Assembly: GCA_965233585.1 (NCBI GenBank)
Contig: CBDDTI010000106.1
Span: 1 to 29,521 of the forward strand
Direction of reading: 5' to 3'
Length of the DNA: 29,521 nt
Origin: a bacterium
GTDB taxonomy: Bacteria > SAR324 > NAC60-12
Positions within the stretch are counted from its first letter, which is position 1. Each line of letters starts with the position of its first letter. Of the stretch, positions 2,890 to 29,255 are shown piece after piece. The notes beneath the pieces are model-generated. The model saw only the letters and a program-made list of their open reading frames with translations, searched no databases and was not told the DNA's origin. The translations under genes and the position numbers were made by a program.

Positions 2890-4493
2890 TCTTTTGGTTT
2901 TTATTTCCCTCTTTTCCTCCCTTCTTATTAAATTTTCTGGCAAAGAACACACCAACCTTACTTTAATTACATTACTGGCAAAGACCTTTGGGTGTCAGAC
3001 TTTTTTGGGGTAGATGGTTATTGAGTGCTGGACCATTCCCTCGAGTGCCCCCACTCCATCATATTGGCTAGGTCATCCATCATCTTGCATGCCAACACAG
3101 CCTTGGAAACCCTCCCATCCCGGTTTATCAACACACTGATGCTTGGCAGACCCACAGGGTTGTATTTTGATTCGGTTTCGGCCATCATGATGGGGGAAGC
3201 AAAGTAGTTTTTGATGGTGAAGTCATCCAGCCTTTCTGCTTACAATTTGATCTTGGCCATGGTGGCTTGGTGGATGCCAGTTTTAGAATCCTCCATCAAC
3301 CTGGGGCAGATGAGAAAAATGCCAAAAGAACCCCTGTAGTTGACTCTTTGGCATGCACTCATCCTCCATGACCCTGGAAATGTCCAAACTTGGGCTGAAA
3401 CTTTGCTGGTCTGTCCAGTCAGTCCTTTTTTCTCCAGTGTGGTGCTGTTTCCCTAATTCTAAAGGTACATAATTATTTTGGGTGGCATTGATTTTAATTT
3501 TTTGTACTCTCTTTTTTTGTGTTTTTTAGGGCATAAAACCCTGCAATCATGCAAAATTACGTATTGGATGACTTTCATATCCTTTATTCTTAACTTCCCT
3601 TGGGACCTTAATAATGCCCTCGCTTCACTTGGGCATAAACACAAGGTCCCTCGTGAAGTGAAAAATAAAGGATATTATCGTCATCCAATAATAGTTATTT
3701 ATTGGATGACGATAATTTCCTCTATTTTTCACTTCACGAGGGACCTTGTATTTATGCCCTCGCTTCGCTCGGGCATTATTAAGGTCCCAAGGGAAGTTAA
3801 AAATAAAGGATATGAAAGTCATCCAATACGTAATTTTGCATGATTGCAGGTTTTTATGCCCTAAAAAACATAAAAAAAGAGAGTACAAAAAATCAAAATC
3901 AATGCCACCCAAAATAATTCTGTATCTTTAGAATTAGGGAAACAGCACCACACTGGAGAAAAAAAGAATGACCCGACAGACCAGCAAAGTTTTAGCCCAA
4001 GTTTGGACATTTCCAGGATCATGGAGGATGAGTACATGCCAAGGAGTCAACTACGGGGGTTCTTTTGGCAGTTTTCTCATCTGTCCCAGGTTGGTGGAGG
4101 TTTCTAAAACTGGCATCCACCAAGACACCAAGATCAAGTAGTAGGCAGAAAGGTTGGACAACTTAACCATCAAAAACTGCTTTGTTTCCCCCATCATGAT
4201 GGCAGAAACAGAATCAAAATACAACCTTGTGGGTCTGCCAAGCATCAGTGTGTTGATAAACCGGGATGGGAGGGTTTCCAAGGCTGTGTTGGCATGCAAG
4301 ACGATGGATGACCTAGCCCAGATAATAGAATGGGGGCACTCAGATGAATGGTCCGGCACTCAATAACCATCAACCCCAAAAAAGTCTGACATCCAAAGGT
4401 CATTTCCAATAATATAATTAAAGTAAGGTTGGTGTGTTCTTTGCCAGAAAATTAAATATGAGGGGAGGAAAAGAGGGAAATAAAAACCAAAAG
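2890..4493. repeat. ~1.6 kb imperfect palindrome centred near 3695
   Basis: Centre is CGTCATCCAATA-atagttatt-TATTGGATGACG. Mirrored ORFs: 3459-3644(-)/3746-3931(+) and 3025-3207(+)/4051-4359(-). Confidence 0.88.
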
Positions 4494-12505: not shown

Positions 12506-12720
12506 TGTGGAGTAATGTCCCTACATCACTCTCATTCGAGCTTGTTACGCTCTAAAATCACCTTAAAACGTTCTCAAAACACCTTAAAACAGGCTGAAAC
12601 CGTCTTTCAACCATCCGTTTACCGATAAAAACCATCTTGATGCGCTCTCAAAACACCTTGATGGCATCTACATTAAGGTTGTTTCAACCTGAAACCGGCT
12701 TGTAATCGTCTGCAACCGGC

Positions 12721-13006
12721 TTGTTTTCGTCTGCAATCGGCTTGCAACAGGCTCGATCGAGCCTGCAATCGGCTTGTTTTCGTCTGCAATCGGCTTGCAA
12801 CAGGCTCAATCGAGCCTGCAATCGGCTTGTTTTCGTCTGCAATCGGCTTGCAACAGGCTCAATCGAGCCTGCAATCGGCTTGTTTTCGTCTGCAATCGGC
12901 TTGCAACAGGCTCAATCGAGCCTGCAATCGGCTTGTTTTCATCTGCAATCGGCTTGCAACAGGCTCAATCGAGCCTGCAATCGGCTTGTTTTCGTCTGCA
13001 ATCGGC
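12721..13006. repeat. 53-bp tandem repeat, ~5.4 near-identical copies, each with an internal hairpin
   Basis: Unit TTGTTTTCGTCTGCAATCGGCTTGCAACAGGCTCAATCGAGCCTGCAATCGGC at 12721, 12774, 12827, 12880, 12933 and 12986 (partial). Confidence 0.95.
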
Positions 13007-13520
13007 CTGTTGCAACCCGATTGCAAGCCGTTTGCAACATCAATTTTTCCACTTTCAACGTCTTGAATCAGTTCGGGGGCGCGAAGAAAGGTTCTGAGAA
13101 CGGCAATGTTTGAATTTCCGTTCTTTAAAACAAACACAAATTAAAGCGCAACTCGTTTTGCATCAACAAATCTTAACTCGCGCCAAAATTATTGTCTTAA
13201 ACAATAATTTCCGCTCGATTATTTTATCAAAAATACATACATGTTCAACTTTTCAACAGTTATTGTTTATCAGTGTTTACGAAAAGATTCTCAATCCAAC
13301 TAAATGTCGCAATTATTTATTAACAGAAGAAATCACGTTTGTTTTTATTTTGGTTTTATGGATGATTTTTCTGCCGCTGTGTCTAATTTTTAAGTAGCAG
13401 ACTATCATTCTTAATTCCAAAATAAAAGAGCGCGCTTAATTTTAAATTTATTATTTTTTATGTCATAAACTATTTCAGTACTACATCACACGTCTTTCTA
13501 TAAACATTTGCTGCAAATTC

Positions 13521-13865
13521 ATGGTCAACAACAACAATCTCACGTATCAACATATAAAGAATCCCCACGTTTTGTTGCGAAATATCTCAATTCTTCTCAA
13601 CAGGATAAACAAAATCTTAAAGTTGTTGGATCAACGAGTATTTGTGTATCGTAAAAACGTTAAGGACCGCACGTGTTTCTTTTATATTCCAACATATGAT
13701 TCCGAAACACGCGCGCAAATCATTTTTGCCATTCAAAAAGAATTACGAGTGTACCATTATTATAAAAAAGTAACCATTAAGTTTTTGTCTAAAACGTTTT
13801 GTTTGAAAAACAACAACATTTTTAATTATGTGGAGCAACGACTCGCCTCCCGCCAATCGCCGTAA
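13521..13865 (+). CDS. Hypothetical basic protein, 114 aa (Polinton accessory)
   Basis: ATG-initiated ORF in AT-rich context with TATAAA at ~13499. Confidence 0.5.
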   Translation: MVNNNNLTYQHIKNPHVLLRNISILLNRINKILKLLDQRVFVYRKNVKDRTCFFYIPTYDSETRAQIIFAIQKELRVYHYYKKVTIKFLSKTFCLKNNNIFNYVEQRLASRQSP

Positions 13866-14082
13866 TTGTGTCCGAAGAAACAGAGATGGAGAAGATCCTT
13901 TTAAATATATTTATTTTGTAAAAGACACTATTTCCCCTTGGCTTTTAGTTTTTCTTTGGTCTTTTTTAATGCTGCTCGGTCTATACGCTTTATTTGAACA
14001 TGAATACAAATTATGGAGGAATATAAATGTTAACAACAAAACTGTAGATTTTTCTATCCCTCAAAATACAAATGTCTTGTAA
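13828..14082 (+). CDS. Small single-pass membrane protein, 84 aa
   Basis: Hydrophobic stretch ISPWLLVFLWSFLMLLGLYALF and an NKT sequon; overlaps the upstream ORF by 38 nt. Confidence 0.5.
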   Translation: MWSNDSPPANRRNCVRRNRDGEDPFKYIYFVKDTISPWLLVFLWSFLMLLGLYALFEHEYKLWRNINVNNKTVDFSIPQNTNVL

Positions 14083-14400
14083 GCGCGGTGTGTTTTACTT
14101 TCTCAGCGTGAGTTTTCTCGTTTCTTTGCGTAAATTTCGCTCAACCCTCCCTCTGCGAAGTGTTCTTCATAAAGAATCTTTCAAAGCATTTTTTTTTATT
14201 GTATGAAAAAGTTCTTTTTATTTAATTTCGACAAAAAACTTCTAACTTTATTTATAATAAATGTACATATGTTCGCGTGTTTGACCGCCCGCTTTTATTA
14301 TAAAAAATAAATAATTTCAAGTTCTTGATTTAAAAACTTCATTTCATTTTCAATTCTTAAACATTTCAAACTTTAAAAGTATATTTGCAATTCTGCCATA

Positions 14401-15465
14401 ATGAACTTCAACATCATCATCGTCTTCGTCATTTGTGCCTTTTATTTGGCACAAAAAATTTCGTGCGAGGAAGACATCACTTTATTGAAAAATCTCCTCG
14501 CCAAAATTGTCGCATCCACTAATTCTTCTTCTGATACGACCATCGTCCCAACAACCGGCTTTGCTTCAACCACCACAACTGCTTCTTCCACTTCAAGTAC
14601 CACGACCGTTCCTTCTACTAGCACTACCACCGTCCCGCCCACTACCGTTGCTACCACTTTGACGAGCTCTACTCTCTCAACTACGATTGTAACTTCACCC
14701 GCTACCACTTCGGCTGTGTTGGAAACAAGCACGGTTCTGGTACCTCCATTGCCACAACCACTTTTAATCCGCCAACGTTTTCCGCTTCGCCTAATGTATC
14801 AACAATACATAGTACTTTTTCCTTTGCGGGTTTTGACTCCACAACCTTTGACAGTAAGTATTGATTATTTTCTTTTAAGTTAACATTTTTTATACAAATG
14901 CCTTATTATTTTCAGATGTCTTCAAAATATTTGTTGGATCTGTGTTCGCCTTCATTTTTGTAACGTTTGCCATAATAATGTACAAATTAAGAAGACTGAG
15001 CCATCACCACCAAGAGCCGTCTAACGTCGAAGTATGATTATCGTATTTTATAAAATATTTTGTCTACTCTATTTTTTTTTTTTTAGCCTATTGAAATGAT
15101 TCAAATAGAGGCTGCTGCGGATCCATCAGCAAATGAAGAGGTTGTGGAAGAATCGAGTGTTGAAATTCTGCCGCTTGAGTCAACCGCATCGGCGTTGCCG
15201 TCCGATGCAACTACTTTTTTGTCGGTTCCCGAAAAAGTAGATAAAGCAACCAACACGGAGTATACGGTAAGAAATTTATTATTATTTTTAAATCGCTTAT
15301 TATATATAAATTATTTTTTAGGTTTATCATAGACGACCGTACTTTTCGAGCATGATTCCTCCGTTATTCAACACACCTCGCACGGAACCTGCGACGGATT
15401 CTTCTTCAGTAGCCGTTGACCCTTCTCTCCTTTCTGCCAGGCTAAATTTGTCTACTCCCGTCTAA
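14401..15465 (+). CDS. Mucin-like type I membrane glycoprotein, 4 exons (14401-14853, 14916-15031, 15087-15266, 15322-15465), one frameshift near 14733, ~297 aa
   Basis: Signal peptide and S/T-rich ectodomain. GT-AG introns of 62, 55 and 55 nt. Exon 2 gives TM helix VFKIFVGSVFAFIFVTFAIIMY followed by KLRR. Ends in STPV; AATAAA at ~15498. Confidence 0.75.
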
Positions 15466-15571
15466 TACATTATAATCTAGTTTTTATTTTTATTTGAATA
15501 AAATAAATGCGCATTTCATTTTATTTCTCAAAAATACATTTATGCATATGTACATCTTTGGTCGTTTTGTT

Positions 15572-16786
15572 CTATTGTTGGATATGAGGCAGTTTTTTCT
15601 TGATGCCAAAACACAATTCCATAAAGGCTTTTGTTATTTCCTCCAGCCCTCTTAGCGGTACCTGAATCTTCATAATCTTGGTCGAATATTGTTGGTTGTT
15701 TTCGTTATACTGAAAAAATGTCTTTTTAGATAAGATTTTTCATGCTATCTGACGTACTCACGTGTTCCTTTTTCACATAAATCACCGGCCAGGCTGATAG
15801 CCCTCCGGCCTTTTGAATATGCCTCAAGCCGGTTATTCCGACGGTCACTTGCGGATTAAGGTATACTACCTTGTACATCGGCTTAATTGGGAGGCTGATG
15901 CTTTTCTCATCCACTTTTTTTGTCTTGATCAGCTCAATAAATTTTTTGAGCGTGGCCGGATTTATGTACATATACTAAAATAAAAATTAAAATTATTTTA
16001 ATTCATCAAATTAAGTTAATATAGACTTACATTGTCTGGACCAAAAAAGTAGGCTTCTCTTGTTGAATGTTCTTTTTGCCATTCAGCAAAATCGATATCC
16101 CTTGTCTCGCATATTTTTTCGGTGGTCCAATTTCGAAAATATTGCTTTTGCTCATCTTCGTCCATTAAAATTTGATACGACATCAATGACGCGCCTTCAT
16201 AGACCGCATGATTGTTAATTTCAGTATCCACCAATATTCCTTTTTTATTTGACCTTTTTCTTTTCTTTCCTAAAATGTCTTGAGTCTGCTCATTAAGGTC
16301 TTCGTCATCATCATCATCATCATCATCATCATCGTCATTGTCATCATTTTCTAAACTTTCATCGCTTAACTCCTCCGCATCGGTTGAAACATCATCATCA
16401 TCAGATTGAACAGTCAAAATTTCTGACTCTGATTCTTCTTCCGTTTCTTCATTTACAGAGTCCGATTCTGATGACGAAATGTTGTGGTTCCTTTTTTGTT
16501 TTTTTCCTTTAATTATAAAATATTACCATTAATTGTAACGCGTGTAAAAAACGACTTAAAAATTAGAATTACCTGATTTCAATTTATGTTTTTTATTTGT
16601 ATTCTTCTTGGATTTTCCATTACCAATCTTCTTTTTATCAGTCTTTTTATTTTTCTTTTCCGCCTCTGACGTATTTTCAGCCTTTTTTTTCTTCTCATCA
16701 TCAACGGCTTTATAATTAATCTCTTCCGATTTACCATTTTTATTGGCTGTGTTAGGCTTTTTCTTTTTTGCGGGTGATTTCTTCAT
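15572..16786 (-). CDS. 346-aa protein, 4 exons (16786-16573, 16506-16031, 15974-15762, 15709-15572): Lys-rich N-terminus, poly-Asp/Glu tract, globular C-terminus (possibly PC4-like)
   Basis: GT-AG introns of 66, 56 and 52 nt join three listed ORFs plus a last exon into one frame of 1041 nt. Confidence 0.8.
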
Positions 16787-17455
16787 CTTATTGCTTTAAA
16801 TGCGGGTGATTTATTCTGACAATAAATCTGTACTGACGTTTGTCATCAAATGTAGGTTCTTTTTAAACCTTCTTGAGTTTAAGGGAGTGTCAGTATGACA
16901 ATGTTCTAAGGGGCTCTTGATTCCACATGCGCGGGCAAGTAGCTGATAAGTTTCATCAATTTTGATTGGTTACACAGCATAAATGAGCTATGGTGTTGAA
17001 GGTTGTAAATTTTAACGATGCTGAACGCGTTTGAGGTCAATTCTTGTTAATGTTTTTGGCTCATCCTAAATTATAACGCGTCAAGTCGTTAACAGACAAT
17101 GGTCTAAGGAAATTATGGATAATTTGTGTTTTTGAACGTGTTGAATTGTGAATTAAACAACGGTGCAAGAAAATTATGGATAATGGGTGCACTGTGTGCT
17201 GTGTGTGTGTGTGTGTGTGTGTGCGTGTATTTTCCATCAATTTTTTCTCATTCAACTAGTCCGTATTTGTAACAAATTATATTTGTCAAAACTCAATCAA
17301 AACGCCATTAATTTTTCCGAGTACTTAACGTTTCTCATGCTCAAGATTTGTAATTTGCTGTGGATATCTTTAATTTTTTTGTGCTTAATTTGTCATTAAT
17401 TTTTTCTCATGCAATTGGCTCGTAAATGTGCCAAACTATTTCCCACCAAAAATTG

Positions 17456-17491
17456 TATAAAAACGCGGTCATATTTCCAAATTCATTCATT
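17456..17491 (+). promoter_or_regulatory. TATA box plus TCATT initiator-like core promoter
   Basis: TATAAAAA at 17456 and TCATTCATT 27 nt downstream, upstream of ATG 17552. Confidence 0.55.
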
Positions 17492-17551
17492 ATAAGTTTG
17501 AACATTCGTTGAAAGAAGATCTTCTGCCATTCGCTGTCAAAGGTAATTCAA

Positions 17552-18379
17552 ATGTCTAATTCACCAAATGACTCAAACAACCCTCGCCAAGTTTTTTTTG
17601 GCCCTGCAGGGTTAAGAATAAGATTTCACCTAAGAAACGTTGATGATTTAACATCACCGCCATCTCCACCGGTTGTGCCAATTGGACGAGGTCGAAGAGA
17701 TTTGAGGTCAAATGATGGCCCAAGTTCTTCTCTCGCCGCTCGTGGTGTTGGTCGGGGCCAGAGAACATCTTCCTCGTTTAATCAACGGGGTCGAGTATCT
17801 GAACCGATAGTTGTAAACCCCGAAGGATTTGGAATTATGGTTCAGATCAATAACAATCCAGCCGATGATTTAACATCGACCAATAACTCCGCCGATGATT
17901 TAACATCGCCATCAAACAACGCTGTCGATGATTCAACATCGAACCCCATGTCTCAAAGAATTTTTGCTGAGCGCAACACCTCGAGTACTTCGGTCGCTGG
18001 TCGTGGCGTTGGTCGGGGACAAAATATTTCTCGCCCCTTCAATCAAACGACTTCAGCCTCGATTGGACGAGAGGTCAGACGCGGTGTTGGTAGGGCTGGA
18101 AGATATTCTTCTCCTTATCAACGTCCAACTCGATCAGCAGAAGAAGAAATAGAAGAGGAAAATTATTTCCCCGCACCCACAAATTTTGAAAGATCGAATG
18201 ACGGTCGTTTAGCCTCTTTCATTCTCGATTTAATTGATGTAGAAGGAGGCTCACCTTATGATTTGTTTAATCGTTATGCTGAGTACGTATTGCGTCAACG
18301 CATTCAAACGCTTGAGCGTGAACGCGAACGCTTACGTGCTCAATATCAAAGATTGTTGCGTCATTTTAGACAAGAATGA
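17552..18379 (+). CDS. 275-aa disordered RG-rich protein with C-terminal coiled coil
   Basis: Long ATG ORF with RGVGR x3, DDLTS/DDSTS x4 and a heptad-like tail LRQRIQTLERERERLRAQYQRL. Confidence 0.8.
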   Translation: MSNSPNDSNNPRQVFFGPAGLRIRFHLRNVDDLTSPPSPPVVPIGRGRRDLRSNDGPSSSLAARGVGRGQRTSSSFNQRGRVSEPIVVNPEGFGIMVQINNNPADDLTSTNNSADDLTSPSNNAVDDSTSNPMSQRIFAERNTSSTSVAGRGVGRGQNISRPFNQTTSASIGREVRRGVGRAGRYSSPYQRPTRSAEEEIEEENYFPAPTNFERSNDGRLASFILDLIDVEGGSPYDLFNRYAEYVLRQRIQTLERERERLRAQYQRLLRHFRQE

Positions 18380-18493
18380 TTTGTATTAAGTAATTTGTTT
18401 ATAAATGTCTGAGCTATATAGTTTTAATGTGTTTGTATATATTATTTCCAAATTTTATGCGTCAATAAATTTTGTTTCAGAATTTTAACAGAA

Positions 18494-19255
18494 ATGCCAA
18501 AATCCTACGTCTGCCGCGAATGCCAAAAATCGTTTGCTAGAAAATCTTCCCGAGACAAACATGAATCGTTTCGTCATCGTGAAACATCGACAAAATTCCG
18601 AAATCGGACTCCATTAAATCAATCGCTTCAGTGTCCGTTTTGTAAGAATGAATTAAGTTCCTTCAAATCAAGAAATGATTTGGTCTCTCACATCGATTCC
18701 TCTCATTTAGAAGACTTAAATTATTCTCTTTTTAAATCTGCTTTGAATGGTAAAATTAAAATTTTTCGGAAACATATATTTTCTACAGAAACGCTTCACG
18801 CCTTTGTTGTTAATAGAGCAAATAGACAAGAAATTGTTGATGTCATTCGTCATGAATTGAGTAAAACCTTTACAGTAAAAGTTGCTTTAATTTTATCAGC
18901 GGCGTATCAGATTCCTGATTTGAATTCAGCTACAAAAGACAAAGACACTGAGACGGAAGCTGCTGTTGATAATACTTCAACACAGCCTCAAACGGTTGTT
19001 AGCAACATTGATGATTCAACTGAAAAAAGTCTTGATCAGTCGTCACATCAATTAATGCCTAGCGATCGAGATGTCTTTGCTTTAAGAACCGGCTATATTC
19101 AATTCACGTCTTTTGATTCTTCTCGCTCGTTAAAAGGTAAAGTTCAAAAATTATTAAACAATTTAATAACTCGAGAAGAGGATTTGTTGATGAGAGGTTC
19201 CGGATGGAGATTCGAATCTCTGTCTTTTAGCGACATCCAAATCACTAATATTTGA
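18494..19255 (+). CDS. C2H2 zinc fingers plus putative terminal-protein domain (homolog of the pPolB N-terminal region)
   Basis: CRECQKSF..H..H and CPFC..H..H fingers; C-terminal GSGWRFESL motif typical of the N-terminal region of Polinton pPolB. Confidence 0.75.
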   Translation: MPKSYVCRECQKSFARKSSRDKHESFRHRETSTKFRNRTPLNQSLQCPFCKNELSSFKSRNDLVSHIDSSHLEDLNYSLFKSALNGKIKIFRKHIFSTETLHAFVVNRANRQEIVDVIRHELSKTFTVKVALILSAAYQIPDLNSATKDKDTETEAAVDNTSTQPQTVVSNIDDSTEKSLDQSSHQLMPSDRDVFALRTGYIQFTSFDSSRSLKGKVQKLLNNLITREEDLLMRGSGWRFESLSFSDIQITNI

Positions 19256-19305
19256 TTTTAAGGACTTATTTTGTTGTATATGAAAAATTCAAGTAAGCTT
19301 TGGAA

Positions 19306-22300
19306 ATGGATTTTATAGAAATTCCGCGAGATTTAAAAAGATCTAACTGCTTGGAATGGAATACTCGATATGATAAATTTAACTTTCTTTATCTGTACAT
19401 TAGACATCTTTTTCCAGAAACTGCTTCCATCACAGATTTTCGTCAAATGCCAATAAAATATCTTAAAAAATTCAACATAAAAGGTTTTACGTTTCCTCTT
19501 CAATTTTGTGACATAAAAAAATTTTTGTGTAGAAATCGTCATTTACCAATTTCAATTTCCGTACTTTATGAGAGTGAAGGTCACGTTTCAAAGTTAGGGT
19601 TTATTACTAACAAAAACAATGATATAAGAGAAAATACTCTCCATTTGTTAATGATAAAACACGATCCTAAAATCTCTTCCGATAAAACTTTAAGTAATTC
19701 CCGTCCCAAAAAATCGAGTTTTCCTTCCAAGTTTAAAAAAATCAAAGATTTAAATCAACAGCATCATTTCTTTAAAATTACAAAACTCCAAGGTTTTTTG
19801 AATAATCGGGCCGGACTGTTGTCGATTAATAAAGCGGGTCAACAGAAGTACATCCACTGTGAAAAATGTCTGCTGCGTTTCCGATCAAAATCCAAGAAAG
19901 AAAAGCATGAGCGGATTTGCTACGATAAGCAACGCACCATCTATCCCGGCAAAAATGCCGCTATAAGTTTTTCTAACCACAAACATAAATTTAAAGCACC
20001 TGTTGTGGGATTTTGTGATTTTGAAAGTGTACTTCAAAGAAACAAGGAACGATCTAAATGTCGACTTTGTTCTAAATTGGAATGCTTGTGTGCTTTTCCT
20101 ACAAGTGACGATATAAATGTGCATAGACCGGTAGGCTACAGCCTGATTTTTGTGGACTCCGAGAATGAAGTATTCTTTCAAGAAGAATATTTAGGAGAGG
20201 ATGCGGCCAAACGTTTTTTGGATCGGATACCTCTCTATGAAAAAGTTGTTGAAGAAAGAAAACAAAAATTCAGAGATGTTCTCAAAACTCAAGCCACCCA
20301 GGAGGAATGGCAAATGTTTCGAAAAGCAACCGTTTGTCATATATGCGGTCTCCGATTTGCTACCCATCCTAAAAAGTATAGAAAAGTTTTGGATCACGAT
20401 CATGTCACAGGAAAAATAATGGGTGCGGCTCATTCGCTGTGTAATTTGACAAGATCCGGACCCTATCACACGCCAATTTTTTTCCACAACGCTCAAGGGT
20501 AAAAAATTTTTTATTAACTTTATTTTATCAATCAATTTTTACAAATTAAACGTTTCAGATACGATTTGCATTTAATCATAGAAGAGTTAAACATTCGCCG
20601 ATTCAAGAAAATGCCGGAAGTCTTGGCTAGAAACAGTGAAAAATTTCGCACTCTTACATTGGGCAAATTCAAAATTCAAGATTCATTAGAGCACATATCT
20701 GCCAGCTTAGACGCTCTTGTCCAAGATTTGAATCAAACTTCAAACTTTTCTTTCCCTATTTTACAACAGATGGAAAGATTTCAAAAAATTCCTATCCGTC
20801 AAAAATCAAAAGCTTTTAAACTTTTAAAAAGAAAAGGCATTTTTTGTTACGAGCATTTTCAATCATTACAAGAAATGAAAAAAAGTCGAAACCTCCCAAC
20901 CAAAGACGCTTTTTATTCCGAATTGAATGAAGAACACATCTCGGAAACGGATTATTCTCATGCGCAAGAAGTCTTCAAACTGTTCAAGTGCAAGAATGTA
21001 GCGGATTACATGATGCTTTATTGTTCTTTGGATGTCATCCTGCTATGTGAGGCATTTCTTCAATACAGGAAAATGGTTATGGAACATTTTCAATTGGATC
21101 CAATCTATTACTTAGGTAAATTTCCTTTTCTGTTGCTTGACATATAAAGTTTGAATATAAAATTTATTTCGTATAATTTTAGGAATTCCTGGTTTAAGTT
21201 TTGATGTTATGCTTATGTTCTATCAAAACTCTGAACGAGCTACAACAACAAATGATAACCTCGCGGGTGAATCTTCCAAGCCTCTAGGATCTCTGGATAT
21301 CTATTCCGATCCCGAAATGGAGCAGTTTTTTACAAAGGGTATCAGAGGCGGACAAAGCTTTATCTCTCAGCGTTATGCAAAAGGAAACAGCAATCCGAGA
21401 AAAAGCGGCGATCATTTACTTTACATTGACGGTAATTTTATACTGCATCGTTTGATTAATTTATTTATTTAAAATCGGTGACTTTTTAGCAAACAACTTG
21501 TACGGGAGCATGGAAACTTTAAAATTGCCAGTTTCTGATTTCGAGTGGGTTGCAAAAAAAGATCTTGAAAAATGGACTGCCAAAGATATTATCAAGATTC
21601 CTTCTCAAGACGAGACCGGGTACGCATTCGAAGTTGATTTGCATTATCCTTCTCATCTTCACCCGGTAAATCTGATCTTTTTAACACGTTTTTGCATTTT
21701 GATAAACGGTAAAATATTTTCAGACACATGATCAATTTCCGCTGGCTCCGTATACAGACACGGTTTCTTACAAACATCTGTCTCCTTATAATCGCCGTTT
21801 ACTAAAACATCTTAACCCTCGAGATTATAAGAACAAAAGATACCGAAGCAAGAAACTGTTGAGCACTTTTTATGATCGAAAAAAGTACGTGGTGCATCTG
21901 GAAAACCTACAATACTACTTGAAAAAGGGCATGAAGCTGTTGAGGATAAGAAGAGCCGTGAAGTTCCGACAAAAAGCTTTTCTAAAAGAGTTTATCGAAA
22001 AGGTGACATTGCTACGATCGAACGCCCGTAATGATTTTGAACTTCGGCTTTTTAAGCTTTTTGCCAACTCTACTTTTGGAAAATTTATCGGTAAGTAAAT
22101 ACCCAGATTTAAGATCTTTTTTATATTTTTATATTTGCACAAGCGCGTGGTGGTACTGCCAATATTTCGTGCAAAATGTGTTGGCAGTACACACCACACG
22201 CTCATCCACATCTTCAATGTCGTCGTCGTCGGGAGGCGCGTGGACCTCGGCCTCCACGGTGATGACCTCCCCGTCGAAATCAGACATTCGGTTTGCCGCC

Positions 22301-23961
22301 GCTCGAATTTTGGCCAGACGAACGATCTCCGTTGCCCGAATTCTGGCGGCAATAGACCTGTCGTCGGCGGGGAGTCTGATGGGAATGGGGGCCTCGATGG
22401 GAACGTCGGTGGGGATCTCGATGGGGGGAACTCGATCGATGCGCCTCGGTGGGGAACTCGGTGGGGGCCTCGATGGGCACCTCGATGGGGACGGGGACCT
22501 CAATTGGCACCTCGGTGGGGACGTTGGTGGGAATCTCGGTGGTGGGGAACTCGATGAGAAACTCGGTGGGGGCCTCGATGAGCATCTCGATGGGGGACTC
22601 GGTGGGAGCTTCGATGAGCGCCTCGACGGGGACGGGGACCTCAGTGGACACTTCGGTGGGGAGGTCGACAAGAATGCCGGTGGGGACGTCGGGCTCAATA
22701 AAGTTTTCATTTTGAAAGCCTCGGACAGCGCGACCGCCGCCGCCACCGTTGGCGGCGAGCACAGCAACGCCAACGGAGAGTGCAACGGCAGCGGCGCTAG
22801 CGGTGGCGGCGGCGGCGGCAGCGGACGGCGGAGCATCAAAAATGTCGGCCACGGCCGACCGGATCCGCCGGATCAGGCCCGGTCTCCGGTTCTTCTTCTT
22901 CTCCTCCTCCTTCTTCTCCACCGCCAAAAGCGGCTCTCCATCCTCCTCCCTTAACCTCCTGTACCCTCTCCTCATCTCCATCATCATCATTTTTCCTTGC
23001 TCTTCTTCTTCCTCTTCTTCCTGGTCTAAAGTTTGTTTTGAAAATTGCCACATGGTTTTGGGAAGTTTTTAAAAAATGAATCTCCAAACTCCTACACACT
23101 TTATAATGAATTTTTATAAAAATGTTGTATTCTTTATAAAATATTAATTTTATTTTATATTTTTCAGAAAATGTTCGAAATTACATCGAAGTGGTCCTTT
23201 GTGGAGATGAAAAAAGTCTGAGGAAAGCCAGTCTTGGTCAACACATCAACAATTTTCAAATCATTAATGAGAATTTGGTGGCTGTCAACAAGAAGCCGGC
23301 AATGATAGAGCTTAAGAAGCCTTTAGCCGTCGGATTTTCCATTTTGGAGTTGTCCAAGTTGTTTATGTACAGATCATACTATGACACCATTCAAAAACAT
23401 TTCGGCAAAGACAATGTATCTTTGTGTTTTTCGGACACGGATTCTTTTCTTTTAAAAGTTAAATGCAACAATTTGGAAAGGGAAATGAAGAGATTGAAAC
23501 ACATGTTTGATTTTTCAAAGTACCCTAAACAACATCCACTTTTTGACGACAGTAAAGCCAATCAACTTTTTTATTTTAAAGATGAATTAAAAGGTAGAGC
23601 GGCTATTACTGATTTTATAGGCTTACGTCCAAAATGTTATTCTATGAAAATAGCCGATTTTTTGGACAAAAACAAAACTGATGAGAAAAAAGTATGCAAA
23701 GGTTTAAAAAAATCTAGTATAAAAAAGCAATTAACTTATGCAGATTACAAAAAGTGCTTAAAGCAAACTGTTGTAATTTACAAATCTTTTAAAAATTTAA
23801 GATCAAAGAATCACAAAATCCGAACGTGTTTTCAAAGAAAAATTGCGTTGTCGGCAATGGATTCCAAAAGATATGTTTTAAATTGCGGATGTCACACTTT
23901 ATCGCTAGGAAATTGTCTTATTGTTAACAACAAAATGTCTAAATGTCAAATTTGTAAATAA
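19306..23961 (+). CDS. polB: Protein-primed DNA polymerase B, 6 exons (19306-20498, 20559-21115, 21183-21431, 21490-21665, 21724-22090, 23168-23961), 1111 aa
   Basis: Splicing restores HNAQG|YD (ExoII), YLG|IPGLSFD, YID|ANNLYG (motif A), HP|THDQFPLAP and KLFANSTFGKFI|ENVR (motif B). ExoI DFES, ExoIII YCSLD, DTDS and RPKCYS are intact. EndoVII-like insert CHIC..DHDH..H..CN. Exon total 3336 nt, in frame. Confidence 0.93.
22129..23053 (-). CDS. Nested antisense gene in pPolB intron 5: acidic protein with a hydrophobic segment and P(T/I)E(V/A/F) repeats; frameshift near 22440
   Basis: ORF 23053-22280 and the C-terminal part of ORF 22839-22129 continue the same PTE/PIE repeat across a frameshift. 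Minus-strand TATAAAG (~23105-23099) and TCATT (~23079-23075) lie upstream. Confidence 0.7.
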
Positions 23962-24027
23962 AAAATAATTAAATCATTACTTTTATTTAAAAGAAAATTT
24001 TGTAATTTCTTTTTTAAAATTAATAAA

Positions 24028-24723
24028 ATGAACGGTTTTGATTTGAGGTTTAATATTCCGTCCAACATGTTGGTTGTCGGTCCAACATCAAGCGGAAAAA
24101 CAACGTGGCTAAAACATTTAGTGCTTCGTCGGCACGAATATTTTGCAACTCCGCCTGAAACAATGTTGTTGTTTTACAAGGAACCGCAAAAAGCATATCA
24201 GTACATGGAAGACGACATGAATGAGGGCAGAGGTTCTGACACACAATTTCCGTCTTTTCGTAAATTCAAAAATATTCCAAATTCAATTGAAGAGTTGAAA
24301 GATATTTTAGAATTATATCCGAGAAAAATGCCCAAATTGATTGTTTTTGACGATTATTTAGACGATGTTGGGCAAATATTAAAACATTTTTTTACGGTTT
24401 TGACCCATCATTACAATTGTTTCACCGTTTTTCTTTGTCAAAATTTATTTGACAAAAAAGGCGATTTACGGACATTAAGCATAAATACGCAATACATGAT
24501 CCTTTTTAACAATCCGCGGGACAGAAGCGCCGTTGCACATTTGGCAAAACAAATTTTTCCCGGTCGTGTTGGAATCTTAAATAAAGCATATAGAGAAGCA
24601 GTTAACGGTCGAAGTCACGGATATCTTCTTCTAGATTTCCATCAACAGCAAGACGATAAAGTCAGAATTCGAAGTAACATCTTTCCTTATGAAGGATTAA
24701 TGAAAGCCTACGTTACTGTTTAA
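24028..24723 (+). CDS. A32-like (FtsK-HerA superfamily) genome packaging ATPase
   Basis: Walker A GPTSSGKT, Walker B LIVFDD, HHYN..FLCQN and GYLLLD motifs; 231 aa. Confidence 0.92.
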   Translation: MNGFDLRFNIPSNMLVVGPTSSGKTTWLKHLVLRRHEYFATPPETMLLFYKEPQKAYQYMEDDMNEGRGSDTQFPSFRKFKNIPNSIEELKDILELYPRKMPKLIVFDDYLDDVGQILKHFFTVLTHHYNCFTVFLCQNLFDKKGDLRTLSINTQYMILFNNPRDRSAVAHLAKQIFPGRVGILNKAYREAVNGRSHGYLLLDFHQQQDDKVRIRSNIFPYEGLMKAYVTV

Positions 24724-24770
24724 AAAATTTCATATCTATTTAAGAAAAATTAAAAATAATTACTGTTAAA

Positions 24771-25145
24771 ATGTCAAAAAAATTAGAAAAAGCTAGTTCG
24801 CTTTTTAATGCAATAAAAAAATTAAAACATCAAGATTGTGCTAATTTTTTAAATTATTTGGACGATCGCGGCGTTGAATTGCTTTGTCGTATTTTACATT
24901 ACGTTTTGAACGGCGAATTGCCCTTACATGGCGAAGTGCGAACACGACTTCAGAAAAAAATAAGAGCTCATTTAGGGGAGTTCAGACGTCTTGCCACGCC
25001 GCCTCGTCGCTCTTCCGACATTTTGAAAAAAAGAACAATACTACAAAGGGGCGGAATTTTAGGAACTTTATCGGCAATTGCCAGCATTATCGTCCCTATT
25101 TTAGCTCAAATTATTGCAAAAAAGAGCTTGCAACGTCGTCGTTAA
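24771..25145 (+). CDS. Basic virion protein with an adenain-type GG cleavage site and C-terminal amphipathic helix (adintovirus 'cupiennin'-like)
   Basis: LQRGG|ILGTLSAIASIIVPILAQII; located directly after the ATPase. Confidence 0.75.
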   Translation: MSKKLEKASSLFNAIKKLKHQDCANFLNYLDDRGVELLCRILHYVLNGELPLHGEVRTRLQKKIRAHLGEFRRLATPPRRSSDILKKRTILQRGGILGTLSAIASIIVPILAQIIAKKSLQRRR

Positions 25146-25148
25146 AGG

Positions 25149-25994
25149 ATGAGTTCAGGTGTGAAAAGAAAAACAAATGATGAAATATACTCCATGTTTT
25201 TAGTCCCCAAAAGGCTATATCATTCTTTAATAAAAAATATAGAAGATAATGAAACAAAAAAAGAACTTATTTCTATGAATGAAAAACCAAATACGTCCAA
25301 TTACATCGAAAATGCCATTAATTTTAAAAATTTACAAGACAGGCAAAAAATGAATCAAAGCGGTGATAAATTGTACCGTTTTGGTTCTGATAATATATCA
25401 AATGTTATGCCGCCAGTACAAGTCGATAGCAGTACGGGTCGTACGTATCAATCTATTTCAAGATCAACAACCGCTCAAACTCCCCAACAAAAAGAAAATA
25501 CCGCTCAGTTTTTGCCCACTACTCCCATTATGGAAAGGGAACCCGATCCAGACTTGTTTTATACCGCTTCAAGACCAAAAAGCAAAGACGATACTTCAAC
25601 TCCTGACGTGCCAGAATGGTGAAATTTGCCTGTTATAAAGGCATTGACACAAAAAAATTCAGACGGCAAAATATTTTGTCCTTTCACCGCATGCGGGAAG
25701 CAGTATGTTGACGATGCGCAATTCGGCAAACACCTTGTAAGAGATCATATGAAAGAATTGTCTATATTTGACACAGAAAAAATTGGTAAAGATATAGCCT
25801 CGGTCTCTTCACAAGCATCAAAATCCCCTTCAGCTTCAATGTCATCCCTCAAAACAGGATCAGGAGGTGCGAAAAAGAAAACTTTTACTATTTCTCCCGT
25901 ACAAACTAGATCTAAATCAAAAAAACTTTCAACAACTGATGCAGATGCTGTTAAAAAAAAATTACTTTTTCCGGGAAAATACCCAAAATTATAA
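25149..25994 (+). pseudogene. Polinton protein with a C2H2 finger, interrupted by one in-frame TGA (25620-25622)
   Basis: ORFs 25149-25622 and 25626-25994 share a frame. N-terminal MFLVP motif; finger CPFTAC..H..H. Confidence 0.6.
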
Positions 25995-26132
25995 TGAAAG
26001 TAAAATATATATCATCGTTTATTTTCAAGTTTTTTTATAAAATGAGTTACAATTTCATCATTTTTTATTTTGGGTTTTTTTACAAATATTTTAACAAATT
26101 GTTGAGGAGACATTAAATTGTTGCCCACGGAT

Positions 26133-26468: not shown

Positions 26469-29255
26469 TCAGACAATTGCTGTCAGCTCTAGCTCAAGTG
26501 TGGAATAATTTTTCTCCGCTGGTGACAGAGAACGGGAGCCACACTGAATAACCTTTGTCTTTTCCCCTGAGTGTTGCATGAGGACGAATCCAAGGCCGTG
26601 CAACCGGGAGGCATCAGTGATCAGCCTTGTGTTCCATGTTGGGTCAAAGTGGTTGAGGGCCAGGGCTTCGAGAAGATTTGTTTTTAGTTGATCGAAAGCT
26701 GTCTGATGATCTTCTAACCAAAGGTAGGCAGTGTCCTTTCGAAGCAGAGTTTGGAGGATGCTGGTGTGTTTTGCCAGCCCAGGGTGGTATGCGGATAGCT
26801 GGTTGACCATGCCAAGAAAGCTACGGAGCTCAGATACTGATCTCGGGGCCGGGAAGTCCCTTATTCCTTGCAAATACTCAGGGTTAGGCTGCACACCGTT
26901 TTGACTGACAATTTGTCCTGCGAACTCAACTGATTCTCCAATCTCCAGTTTTTTCCTGGACAGGGTGAAGTTGTGCGATCGGCACCTTGCCAATAGTTGA
27001 TCTATACGGTGTCGAAGAGTGTCTATGTCCGGGGCTTGTATGAGGATGTCATCGACCAACTTTCTGATTCCGGGAAGGCCTTCGATGACCTTGTCTGATC
27101 GGCGACAGAACTCATCACTAGAACAAGATAGGCCCATGGGGGCTCTCAGAAAGCGGAAGCGTCCTGAGGGGAGGAGGAAAGTTGTTAGCTTTGAGCTCTC
27201 TTCATCGAGAGGCACCTGATGATATCCCTGGGTTGCATCTAACTTGGCAAAAACTCTAGAATCCGGATCTATGCCTGACAAGATCTCTTGGGTTGATGGG
27301 AAGGTGTGGATGGGCCTCTGGACGTACTTGTTTAGTTTCGTGTAGTCGATCACGAGACGAATATCCCCATTCTTTTTAGCAACGAAGAAGCCTGGAGCAC
27401 ACCACTCTGTTGGTTCCTCCTGTGGTGTGATTACCTTGCCATCAATGAGCTTCTTAATGATCTTCTCTGCCTTTTCTCTCCAGTGGAGTGGAATCTGGTG
27501 AGCAGTACTGATGCGAAAGGGTTTCTTTTCACCTGGGGTGAGATGGACTTTCATAGCTACACACCCTGTGTTCAAGGATGTCTGTGGTAAGTCGTCCGTG
27601 AGAACGGTTGGGTTGTCCTTGATCAGAGACTCTTTCATGCTTTTATATTTATTTTCTGAGAGAAGATAGACAGGCAGAGGGAATTGCTTTGATATAACCC
27701 CGAGTTTGCTAAGATCATCTCGTCCCACGATGATTTCATTCTTGATGGCATCTGTGATAACGGCCTTCGTTTCTGATACATGGTTGGATGATTTGAGGCG
27801 AATGCGAACCGTTCCTGCGGTGGGCACAGGATCCCCGCTGACATTGTAGTATTTGACAAATGAAGGAGATGTCGGCTTTATATTCTGTCTGGTGGCAAGA
27901 TCGGCCACGATCAGAGTGGCAGCGCTTCCTGTGTCTGGAAACGTGGAAAAGTTGAAAGATCCGTTTGCATGAGAGATGTTAAGCGTTAAACGATTTACCC
28001 ATGAATTGTCCGGATCTTCAGGAGTTTCTGTCACTGACATGACAGGCTTGCTCGAGCTGGGTTTTCCCTTCAGCGCAGATGAGCAGACCTTTGCAAGGTG
28101 GCCTTTGATGCCACAATGGTTGCAAGGCGTTCTGTTTTGCCATATAGCACAGTCCTGACGGGCGTGGTTACCACCGCAACCTTTGCATCGTTTCGGTTTC
28201 GATGGTTGCTTCTCTTTGGCGTTGGTTTGTTGTTTTCCTTCGGTTGGTTGGCTTGGTTGGCGGCCTCCCCCCTTATTGAGTGCCGCGACTGGAGCGGCCT
28301 TGCGGAGAGCAGCTTCTGCTTTTTGTTGGCGATCGTATTGGTCGATTGCCTCTTTGACGGCCGTGGCGTCCTTGCGTTTGAGATCAAAGATCTTTTCACG
28401 CAAGTGGGTGTCCTCGCAAGCGTCGATGAAGCGAAAGACTGTGAGGTCTTCTTTGGAAACGGCCTCGAGGTCGGCCATGTCGCCCAGTCTGGCGAGGCGA
28501 AGATAGAAGTCGCTGGCTGTCTCTCCCTGATCTCGGCGTACCTGGAAGAAATCCACACGTCTGTTGAAGACTGGGTACAGAGACTTGAACTCGGCCTCCA
28601 GCATATCGATACAGCCGGCAGGTCCGAAGATAGATGTTCCTGGGCATAGCTGACGCTCCAAGATCTCCTGCAGTGACTGGTCCAACGCCTGTAGGAAATA
28701 TCCCTGTTGGGTGGCTACCGGTTGCTGCTGTAAGTTACTGGCGTCGTAAAATCTCCTGAATGCTGCGACCCATAGCCTCATTTCACCAGGTGTGTTGGCC
28801 TTCATGAGCTGGGTCGGGAACAGAAGCTTACATGTGCTGATTTTTGGAGGATTGGGCTGGACGGATGATTGTCCGGATGTGGATGCGGCCCTTGCAGACT
28901 CTTGTGAGTGTTTTGACACATACTCGTTTAATTTTGTCAAGGCCTTGTCCTGTCTCTCCTCATGCAGTTTAAGAGATGTCTCGGCTGCCTCGTTTGCTGA
29001 TTCGTTGCCGGCCTCGGTCTCCAGATCGCTCCAGCGGTCGTGAAGCTCGACACAGAAGTCGAATGCGTCGGTGAGACGTTTCCGAGCGTCGGAGCAGGAT
29101 GCTGGTGTGTCGAAGACGAATTTCCTTTCAACCAGCTTATCGATGGCAGTGCACGCACGGGTGACGGCGCTCTTGGCCGATGGTATGCGTGCCCAGATGG
29201 CAGCCGAATCGTTCCAATTAACTTGATCCCTCCTGTCAGCCTTGGTTGTTGGAAG
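26469..29255 (-). CDS. Mag-like Ty3/Gypsy gag-pol in a single frame, truncated in RNase H, no integrase
   Basis: Zinc knuckles CKGCGGNHARQDC and CNHCGIKGHLAKVC, protease DTGS, RT (KLDATQGYHQ, PMGL, LVDD) and RNase H TDAS..ELE. The frame is open 105 codons upstream of 28940. Confidence 0.92.
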   Translation of the reverse strand, partial: LPTTKADRRDQVNWNDSAAIWARIPSAKSAVTRACTAIDKLVERKFVFDTPASCSDARKRLTDAFDFCVELHDRWSDLETEAGNESANEAAETSLKLHEERQDKALTKLNEYVSKHSQESARAASTSGQSSVQPNPPKISTCKLLFPTQLMKANTPGEMRLWVAAFRRFYDASNLQQQPVATQQGYFLQALDQSLQEILERQLCPGTSIFGPAGCIDMLEAEFKSLYPVFNRRVDFFQVRRDQGETASDFYLRLARLGDMADLEAVSKEDLTVFRFIDACEDTHLREKIFDLKRKDATAVKEAIDQYDRQQKAEAALRKAAPVAALNKGGGRQPSQPTEGKQQTNAKEKQPSKPKRCKGCGGNHARQDCAIWQNRTPCNHCGIKGHLAKVCSSALKGKPSSSKPVMSVTETPEDPDNSWVNRLTLNISHANGSFNFSTFPDTGSAATLIVADLATRQNIKPTSPSFVKYYNVSGDPVPTAGTVRIRLKSSNHVSETKAVITDAIKNEIIVGRDDLSKLGVISKQFPLPVYLLSENKYKSMKESLIKDNPTVLTDDLPQTSLNTGCVAMKVHLTPGEKKPFRISTAHQIPLHWREKAEKIIKKLIDGKVITPQEEPTEWCAPGFFVAKKNGDIRLVIDYTKLNKYVQRPIHTFPSTQEILSGIDPDSRVFAKLDATQGYHQVPLDEESSKLTTFLLPSGRFRFLRAPMGLSCSSDEFCRRSDKVIEGLPGIRKLVDDILIQAPDIDTLRHRIDQLLARCRSHNFTLSRKKLEIGESVEFAGQIVSQNGVQPNPEYLQGIRDFPAPRSVSELRSFLGMVNQLSAYHPGLAKHTSILQTLLRKDTAYLWLEDHQTAFDQLKTNLLEALALNHFDPTWNTRLITDASRLHGLGFVLMQHSGEKTKVIQCGSRSLSPAEKNYSTLELELTAIV

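Follow-up and report, generated by a model that had tools for sequence, protein, structure and literature searches.

A probable adenovirus-like replication module with a predicted stand-alone terminal protein and an OTU-fold domain lacking the catalytic cysteine in a probable eukaryotic Polinton/Maverick element

Introduction

Passages of PMC11071308 describe polintons as encoding a DNA polymerase, pPolB, to which a terminal protein (TP) and a vOTU protease domain are fused, and adenoviruses as having a separate TP and an inactivated vOTU; an earlier note on the DNA studied here had assumed the same background. In the current model, the polinton vOTU serves to release the TP from the polymerase, and adenoviruses dispensed with this activity because a separate gene had come to encode their TP. 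The present work concerns contig CBDDTI010000106.1, whose full 29,521 nucleotides (nt) are called the window below, and which probably holds one copy of a recently active eukaryotic Polinton/Maverick element, its TP module and pPolB included. The two genes are likely to form a replication module in an adenovirus-like state, that is, a stand-alone TP gene followed by a pPolB whose OTU fold lacks the catalytic Cys.

In the same source, the PRD1-type TP fold is derived from the little-finger/PAD domain, and the linking residue, Ser or Tyr, has a Gly or Pro close by and is placed in the loop that joins helix α2 to the last strand. The vOTU catalytic pair comprises a Cys at the N-terminus of helix α1 and a His in strand β4, and the polinton vOTU was found by structure, not by sequence (PMC11071308). 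The passages on separate TPs in this bioRxiv version name tectivirids and adenovirids only. The PNAS version (Krupovic, Kuhn, Fischer, Koonin 2024; PMC11161782) reports, in its corresponding passages, a coral (Stylophora) polinton with a separate TP gene and a catalytically active vOTU; it suggests that adenovirids arose from polintons that already carried a detached TP, and that the inactive vOTU of adenovirids has a docking or structural role. Its supplement legends list alignments of inactivated vOTUs for adenovirids and bidnavirids only. Full-text literature searches on the TP and vOTU of polintons and adintoviruses returned no polinton that combines TP detachment with vOTU inactivation. 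The split alone is already known, and the new feature of the present locus is the combination of the split with a dead vOTU, conserved across a clade.

The locus shares with adenovirids a separate TP gene directly upstream of the polymerase gene, a predicted PRD1-type TP fold in which the linking site is a Ser followed by a Gly, and an OTU fold at the N-terminus of the polymerase in which a catalytic residue is replaced. Unlike the adenovirid protein, the TP bears N-terminal C2H2 fingers and a disordered insert in the β2-β3 loop; in the models, the large helical β1-α1 insert ascribed to the adenovirid TP in passages of PMC11161782 is absent, as are β-hairpins at the N-terminus of the vOTU. The Stylophora adintovirus/polinton likewise has its TP in a separate gene and its vOTU fused to pPolB, but, by the account in PMC11161782, it keeps the vOTU Cys and His, whereas every copy here has Asn at the Cys position. 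Canonical polinton pPolB (for example Polinton-1 of C. briggsae) and two library relatives of the present locus, P0039 and P0038, have their domains in an identical order (zinc finger, TP, vOTU, Zn-ribbon, exonuclease with HNH, polymerase), but within a single polypeptide and with an intact Cys/His pair. In bidnavirid pPolB the vOTU is also inactivated, and the TP model matches bidna-like pPolB N-termini; there, however, the TP is not split off, and the polymerase as a whole is believed to stay attached to the DNA, whereas here the TP is separate. The PRD1 TP has the same β-α-β-β-α-β order, four-stranded sheet and linking residue in the α2-β4 loop as the modelled protein, but shows no sequence similarity to it and uses Tyr190 for linking (passages of PMC11071308).

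A stand-alone gene for a predicted terminal protein

The upstream gene has the following features.

18494-19255, + strand: zinc-finger and TP gene, 253 amino acids plus a TGA stop at 19253-19255 (open reading frame, codon bias, relatives)
18494-18718, + strand: two C2H2 zinc fingers, residues about 1-75 (Pfam zf-C2H2 below cutoff, E 0.0024)
18725-19252, + strand: TP domain, residues 78-253 (predicted structure)
19199-19201, + strand: codon of Ser236 in the GSGW motif, predicted DNA-linking residue (conservation, position in model)

The open reading frame (ORF) begins with the ATG at 18494, and its product ends in ...MRGSGWRFESLSFSDIQITNI, 15 residues past GSGW. Differences from a family of copies at 79% identity are distributed over the three codon positions as 14/12/56 in the N-terminal half of the TP and as 4/2/12 in the tail that carries GSGW (19137-19252). 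Because they concentrate at third positions in both parts alike, the sequence comparison indicates that the upstream ORF is coding over its whole length.

An exhaustive HMMER search with this ORF gave 42 library relatives at E ≤ 1e-3, 17 of which were fetched for comparison; several of the matches (e.g. P0022, P0030 and P0042) were through the repeated fingers only. Fifteen of the fetched relatives are stand-alone proteins of 203-325 residues that end 15-42 residues after the Trp of the motif. The other two are fused: P0039 (910 residues), in which a Cys-bearing segment is followed by a polymerase that passes Pfam DNA_pol_B_2, and P0038, a 404-residue fragment of the same kind. In an alignment of 16 sequences the finger ligands C7, C10, H23, H28, C47, C50 and H66 are invariant, and the only other invariant residues are G235 and S236. 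The GSGW motif itself is found in 38/39 copies in the assembly to which the contig belongs. A search for longer homologous proteins with the TP ORF gave none, viral and genome scans for related loci gave nothing, the phage collection held no match, and an Atlas search returned generic zinc-finger clusters only. One metagenome locus (L028) was rejected as a relative: its contig is G+C-rich and of bacterial type, and its DLLTRGSGW, in a second frame, is a chance match.

In the AlphaFold model of the TP (mean pLDDT, the predicted local distance difference test score, 81.1), the fingers are followed by a β-β-α-β unit, a disordered linker spanning residues 140-190, a β-β-α unit, the loop R-G-S-G-W and the last strand. 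This topology, a four-stranded sheet with two helices, is in the model that of a PRD1-type TP and of little-finger/PAD domains, and Ser236 falls between helix 210-233 and strand 239-252, in the α2-β4 loop. A comparison of the model with 48,161 PDB chains, made independently of Foldseek, placed Y-family polymerase little-finger/PAD domains at 10 of the top 12 ranks, and the matches to such domains include 4ir1, an entry also used in PMC11071308, in its passages on this fold; the PRD1 TP itself was not among the structural matches, which on this side were to PAD domains only. Matches in BFVD were to the pPolB N-termini of an adintovirus, of bidna-like viruses and of a MELD virus, the bidna-like 'densovirus' N-termini aligning at E of about 4e-3 with a root mean square deviation of 3.4 over 176 columns. 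When the TP alignment was compared with the fused P0039 using hhalign, residues 2-253 matched residues 32-284 with a probability of 99.4 and E of 9e-22. The little-finger/PRD1-type fold and the homology to the N-terminus of a fused pPolB bear out the proposal of the earlier note that the upstream ORF is the TP region. Judging from its place in the model, Ser236 is likely to prime DNA synthesis, that is, to accept the first nucleotide from pPolB.

It could be argued that the upstream product is a zinc-finger DNA-binding regulator with a little-finger-like domain and that replication is primed otherwise. C2H2 fingers are indicative of DNA binding, no polinton TP is known to have been demonstrated by biochemical means, and zinc-binding ORFs named 'Oncoid' and 'Ziftr' are described upstream of PolB in passages of adintovirus papers (PMC8502044; bioRxiv 10.1101/2024.03.25.586562). 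This reading is nevertheless judged improbable, as the same combination of fingers and domain makes up the N-terminal part of fused pPolBs (P0039, and the adintovirus protein ranked first for both the TP and the vOTU model), the sole invariant residues outside the fingers are the Gly-Ser of the linking-residue loop, and the gene is immediately upstream of pPolB. The TP genes of PRD1, phi29 and adenoviruses are likewise situated directly upstream of the polymerase gene. Some of the 'Oncoid' and 'Ziftr' ORFs may themselves be stand-alone or exon-separated TP modules.

The linker of residues 140-190 (18911-19063) is an acidic, Ser/Thr-rich insert in the β2-β3 loop. It varies in length, by 13 codons between families and by 6 nt in a variant in public contigs, and the corresponding acidic insert of P0039 is longer still. 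As pure speculation, the insert might be a DNA mimic.

Conservation of the split between the terminal protein and pPolB

The junction consists of a single feature.

19256-19305, + strand: non-coding spacer from the TP stop to the pPolB ATG, 50 nt, about 24% G+C (indels, no codon periodicity)

The earlier note had correctly placed the stop of the ORF bearing the fingers and GSGW at 19255 and the start of pPolB, in another frame, at 19306, together with the FIEIP start and the HHFFKI motif of the latter. It had also rightly described the gap as AT-rich with stops in both frames: after the TGA, a further stop of the upstream frame is TAA at 19259-19261, and TAA at 19294-19296 is a stop in the pPolB frame. 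The pPolB frame opens at 19297, and its ATG is +2 relative to the TP frame. Copies differ in the spacer by indels of 1-3 nt, and a variant with a 1-nt deletion at 19282 is present in public contigs.

The split is located within a block of shared repeat DNA (12506-26132) that recurs on dozens of contigs of the assembly at 92-98% or about 79-86% identity. Twenty-five copies of the two closest families were extracted, 11 at 96-98% identity (family A) and 14 at about 79% (family B). The stop, whose conservation the earlier note had listed among the checks on its proposal, has a homologue at the end of the upstream ORF in 25/25 of these copies; the TP ORF is uninterrupted in 24 of them and the first pPolB exon in 23. 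A tblastn search of the whole assembly revealed three further, far more distant families, with 24-30% identity in the TP and 38-43% in the pPolB N-terminus with its vOTU. Altogether, the layout of stop, spacer and pPolB ATG is found in 38/39 copies from at least five families of this one assembly, the remaining copy being degraded. The separation of the TP region from pPolB that the earlier note had proposed is thus real and conserved, recurs far more often than chance would allow, and is not decay.

Among the 38 copies the spacer is 2 nt long in eight, 3 nt in one, 18 nt in two, 20 nt in one, 49-53 nt in 24 and 79 nt in two, and the downstream frame relative to the upstream one is +2 in 23, +1 in 12 and 0 in three. 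This relative frame differs even between copies that are 96-98% identical, which disfavours both a programmed frameshift and a fixed splice. Contigs from public runs of two studies also span the junction, at 19190-19325 and 19032-19401. Of ten indel variants in the public contigs, two are in-frame within exons, while the other eight, whose lengths are not multiples of three, are confined to the spacer and to introns 1, 2 and 4.

The possibility that the two ORFs are joined after all, by splicing, read-through or frameshifting, would give an uncleavable TP-vOTU-pPolB that remains bound to the end of the DNA, the state proposed for bidnavirids. One formal in-frame splice can be drawn, from a donor AAAAG/GTAAAG at 19137 (phase 1; the slash marks the cut) to an acceptor ending in TTTTATAG at 19317-19318, and three of the 38 copies have both ORFs in one frame with a stop between. 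However, this splice would remove helix α2, the invariant Ser and strand β4, and the stretch to be removed evolves as coding sequence (the 4/2/12 pattern given above); its donor is a run of Lys-Gly-Lys codons and is absent in other families; no single rule of frameshifting or read-through fits a relative frame that is +1, +2 or 0 among near-identical copies; and the family at 79% identity has no AG at all between stop and ATG. A joined product is on these grounds considered highly unlikely. The earlier note had further stated that no GT donor would keep GSGW. This is not literally so, as there is a GT beyond the GSGW codons at 19222-19223 (phase 2), but none of the AG dinucleotides available (19261, 19292, 19296 and 19317) would give an in-frame join with it to pPolB, and the conclusion of the note holds.

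Two more specific arrangements were rejected. A trans-splice acceptor of the spliced-leader (SL) type in the spacer was dismissed because family B lacks an AG there, and an intron from 19137 to 19318 as the main form of the transcript was dismissed because the deleted stretch is coding by its codon bias.

In one family (contigs C58, C164, C193, C530, C47, C435, C401 and C426) the junction reads TAA, two bases, ATG, as for example in L021 at about 3505-3515. Such a spacing is typical of the coupling of termination and reinitiation and is unusual for a eukaryotic element; for the translation of pPolB, it would fit termination-reinitiation on a polycistronic RNA.

An OTU-like domain without its catalytic cysteine

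The N-terminal region of pPolB contains the following.

19306-19830, + strand: OTU-fold (vOTU-like) domain without catalytic Cys (model, alignment)
19381-19383, + strand: codon of Asn26, which takes the place of the catalytic Cys of OTU enzymes (alignment to P0038 and P0039; model)
19765-19767, + strand: codon of the retained His154, which corresponds to the catalytic His of OTU enzymes (alignment; model)

The model used for pPolB residues 1-192 has a pLDDT of 77.8 and a predicted template-modelling score (pTM) of 0.75, the other four models being poorer (55.6-69.6). Its first long helix comprises residues 26-35 and the fourth of its four long strands residues 152-158; Asn26 is the first residue of that helix, and His154 lies within that strand. 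A structural search with this model ranks OTU proteins first, the two exceptions being REDD1 and potyvirus HC-Pro. Foldseek against the PDB gave no match at E ≤ 0.001, OTU proteins again coming first but at E ≥ 0.47. In profile searches of the PDB, alignment A2 was swamped by zinc fingers and alignment A4 returned chance rows to eL20 only. A search for longer homologous proteins with pPolB residues 1-200 gave none, and a search for close relatives with residues 1-185 gave 12.

The alignment column of Asn26 holds Cys in both fused relatives (P0038 and P0039) and Asn in 11/11 split forms, and His154 is invariant in alignments A2 and A4, which include the fused relatives. Across the assembly, position 26 is Asn in all 39 high-scoring segment pairs that cover it and position 154 is His in 42/42, so that the Asn at the Cys position and the retained His, both proposed in the earlier note, are found in every copy. 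Three external ORFs (P0049, P0050 and P0051, at 53-57% identity) have the same start Met and Asn at position 26, and two of them (P0049 and P0050) have no Cys nearby. The N-terminus of pPolB is therefore best described, as far as the model goes, as an OTU-fold pseudoenzyme that stands outside the active family by its missing Cys, and an Asn-bearing vOTU of this sequence is most likely unable to cut.

The domain is nonetheless preserved. Among the 11 split sequences, the segments 21-37 and 151-170 are the best conserved of the vOTU, with mean column identities of 0.77 and 0.75 against 0.50-0.67 elsewhere, and differences in pPolB codons 1-180 are distributed as 23/19/51 over the codon positions. 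These sequence patterns indicate that the domain is under constraint and is not drifting. A small tree places the 11 Asn forms on one side and the two Cys forms on the other (support 98/97), a result of little weight given its two very long outgroup branches.

An OTU-like domain that is still an active protease or deubiquitinase would have to use another nucleophile, for example the Cys of SNCLEW (position 15) or a Cys four residues after the Asn (position 30). Families A and B do have Cys15 and the other families of the assembly Cys30, so that each has one Cys near the site. Against this, Cys is conserved at neither position: among 39 sequences, 25 have Cys and 14 have Ser at position 15, and 25 have Leu and 14 have Cys at position 30, while the external P0049 and P0050 lack both. 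The model puts Cys15 ahead of a short strand and residue 30 one turn inside helix 26-35, so that neither is at a helix N-terminus. An active enzyme with a displaced nucleophile is accordingly very improbable, and the SNCLEW Cys, which the earlier note had named as a possible active-site residue, is rejected in that role.

Proposed mechanism and its bearing on adenovirids

For the adenovirus-like module favoured here, the TP would be translated as its own protein from 18494-19255, and pPolB would attach the first nucleotide to its Ser236. In the fused relatives the vOTU is thought to free the TP from the polymerase, and the junction between the two reads ...MRGG in P0038, 21 residues after the Trp, and ...NGS in P0039. 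The former sequence resembles the tail of ubiquitin, after which OTU enzymes cut. As the stop of the stand-alone TP falls a few residues before this small-residue junction, cleavage would not be needed, and the fission would mimic the presumed cleavage product. The dead vOTU is kept nonetheless and, since the two segments of its former active site are better conserved than the rest of it, probably has a structural role or helps to dock the TP to the polymerase, as has been suggested for adenovirids. Adenovirids differ in that pTP is processed by adenain and that the pTP and polymerase genes are expressed through alternative splicing.

Several observations weigh against the proposal. The function of the polinton TP in the literature is itself a structural inference, and the coral polinton, as described in PMC11161782, combines a split TP with an active vOTU, so that a split need not force inactivation. 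Pfam detects no OTU family in the domain at E ≤ 1, and PDB sequence profiles give no OTU; the equivalence of Cys and Asn is at the level of sequence alignment, with the distant fused P0038 and P0039 (22-25% identity), and of secondary structure, by the position at the helix start. In the three copies that have both ORFs in the same frame the stop alone stands between them, and read-through is possible there. Finally, the public contigs, from four runs, have no exon joints and retain the introns.

If the module is as proposed, it bears on a link that had rested on adenovirids alone, namely that the split caused the inactivation, and that the coral polinton with its active vOTU had weakened. The present clade, with at least five families in one host and metagenomic relatives, would be a second case of split and Cys loss, independent of or ancestral to that of adenovirids. 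The conserved segments around the dead active site point to a retained non-catalytic role, which bears on the inactive vOTU of adenovirus polymerases, and zinc-finger ORFs upstream of PolB in adintovirus-like genomes may include terminal proteins. That this clade, far from being a convergent look-alike, stands nearer than any other living lineage to the polinton ancestor of adenovirids, with TP detachment and vOTU inactivation as shared derived characters, is an unlikely extension; if true, it would be the first extant group showing both.

The polymerase gene

The remaining parts of pPolB, with exons read from the sequence, are as follows.

19306-23961, + strand: pPolB gene, about 1111 amino acids (predicted exons total 3336 nt)
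19306-20498, + strand: predicted exon 1
20559-21115, + strand: predicted exon 2
21183-21431, + strand: predicted exon 3
21490-21665, + strand: predicted exon 4
21724-22090, + strand: predicted exon 5
23168-23961, + strand: predicted exon 6
20296-20451, + strand: HNH/Endonuclease VII-like insert, pPolB residues 331-382 (PF02945, E 1.1e-5, 25.6 bits, cutoff 23.6)

The inferred exon structure implies introns of 60, 67, 58, 58 and 1077 nt, all of them GT-AG. The ORF starts MDFIEIPRDLKRSNCLEWNTRYDKFNFLY and contains QQHHFFKI, and the translation carries exonuclease and polymerase motifs (FCDFES, HNAQ-G/YD, YCSLD, NSTFGKF and FSDTDS). Exon 1 matches P0039 by BLASTP at E 5e-30, and P0039 in turn matches Pfam DNA_pol_B_2 (PF03175) at E 3.9e-9 with 36.4 bits (cutoff 25.8); the separate exons of the window are individually below Pfam detection.

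The PF02945 insert sits between the Exo I and Exo II motifs and is also present in P0039 and in other families. The fifth intron (22091-23167) has a G+C content of 0.58, compared with about 0.35 nearby, and contains a 12/36-nt minisatellite at 22385-22633; it is kept in copies of 93-98% identity, and the 79% family has other sequence in its place.

The element, its contig and its host

Other features of the window are listed below.

17552-18379, + strand: 275-amino-acid ORF upstream of the TP gene, rich in Arg-Gly repeats, with a charged helical C-terminal stretch (ORF)
24028-24723: candidate FtsK/A32-like packaging ATPase (Pfam matches below cutoff)
26472-29255, - strand: pol fragment of a long terminal repeat (LTR) retrotransposon, RVT_1 and RT_RNaseH_2, in a 928-codon open frame (domain matches)

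The contig is plainly eukaryotic, though it is in a bacterial bin, because it has short GT-AG introns in the polymerase gene, an LTR-retrotransposon ORF and the high-copy repeat 12506-26132. The presence of eukaryotic contigs in the bacterial assembly is likely to result from high-copy host repeats having been binned with the bacterium. The suspicion that the split arose in a dead copy, by decay or as an artefact of assembly, which the bacterial bin, the adjoining retrotransposon reverse transcriptase and the one degraded copy in 39 might raise, is refuted by the same arrangement in 38/39 copies, which represent at least five families evolving under purifying selection, and in contigs of two independent studies.

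The window and about 35 other contigs of the assembly are eukaryotic; between them they carry spliceosomal introns, an LTR retrotransposon and polintons from at least five families. The LTR-retrotransposon pol fragment (26472-29255) abuts position 26132, where similarity to other polinton copies ends. An integrase, a capsid protein and a protease were not identified in the window, in which the DNA shared with other copies ends at that same position. The leftmost stretch of the shared repeat, about 450 bp long (12506-12956), occurs on other contigs in both orientations, which is consistent with its being a terminal inverted repeat of the polinton whose matching right end lies outside the window.

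The library relatives that were looked up all come from metagenome assemblies. As a lead only, the host is perhaps an arthropod, as the Atlas clusters nearest to pPolB exon 1 in sequence are 82-91% eukaryotic, with Arthropoda the most common group.

The genes of the element form a same-strand array with intergenic spacers of 3-66 nt. The 275-amino-acid ORF (17552-18379) had no match in a Pfam search, and between it and the ATG of the TP gene lie an AATAAA and a TTTCAG.

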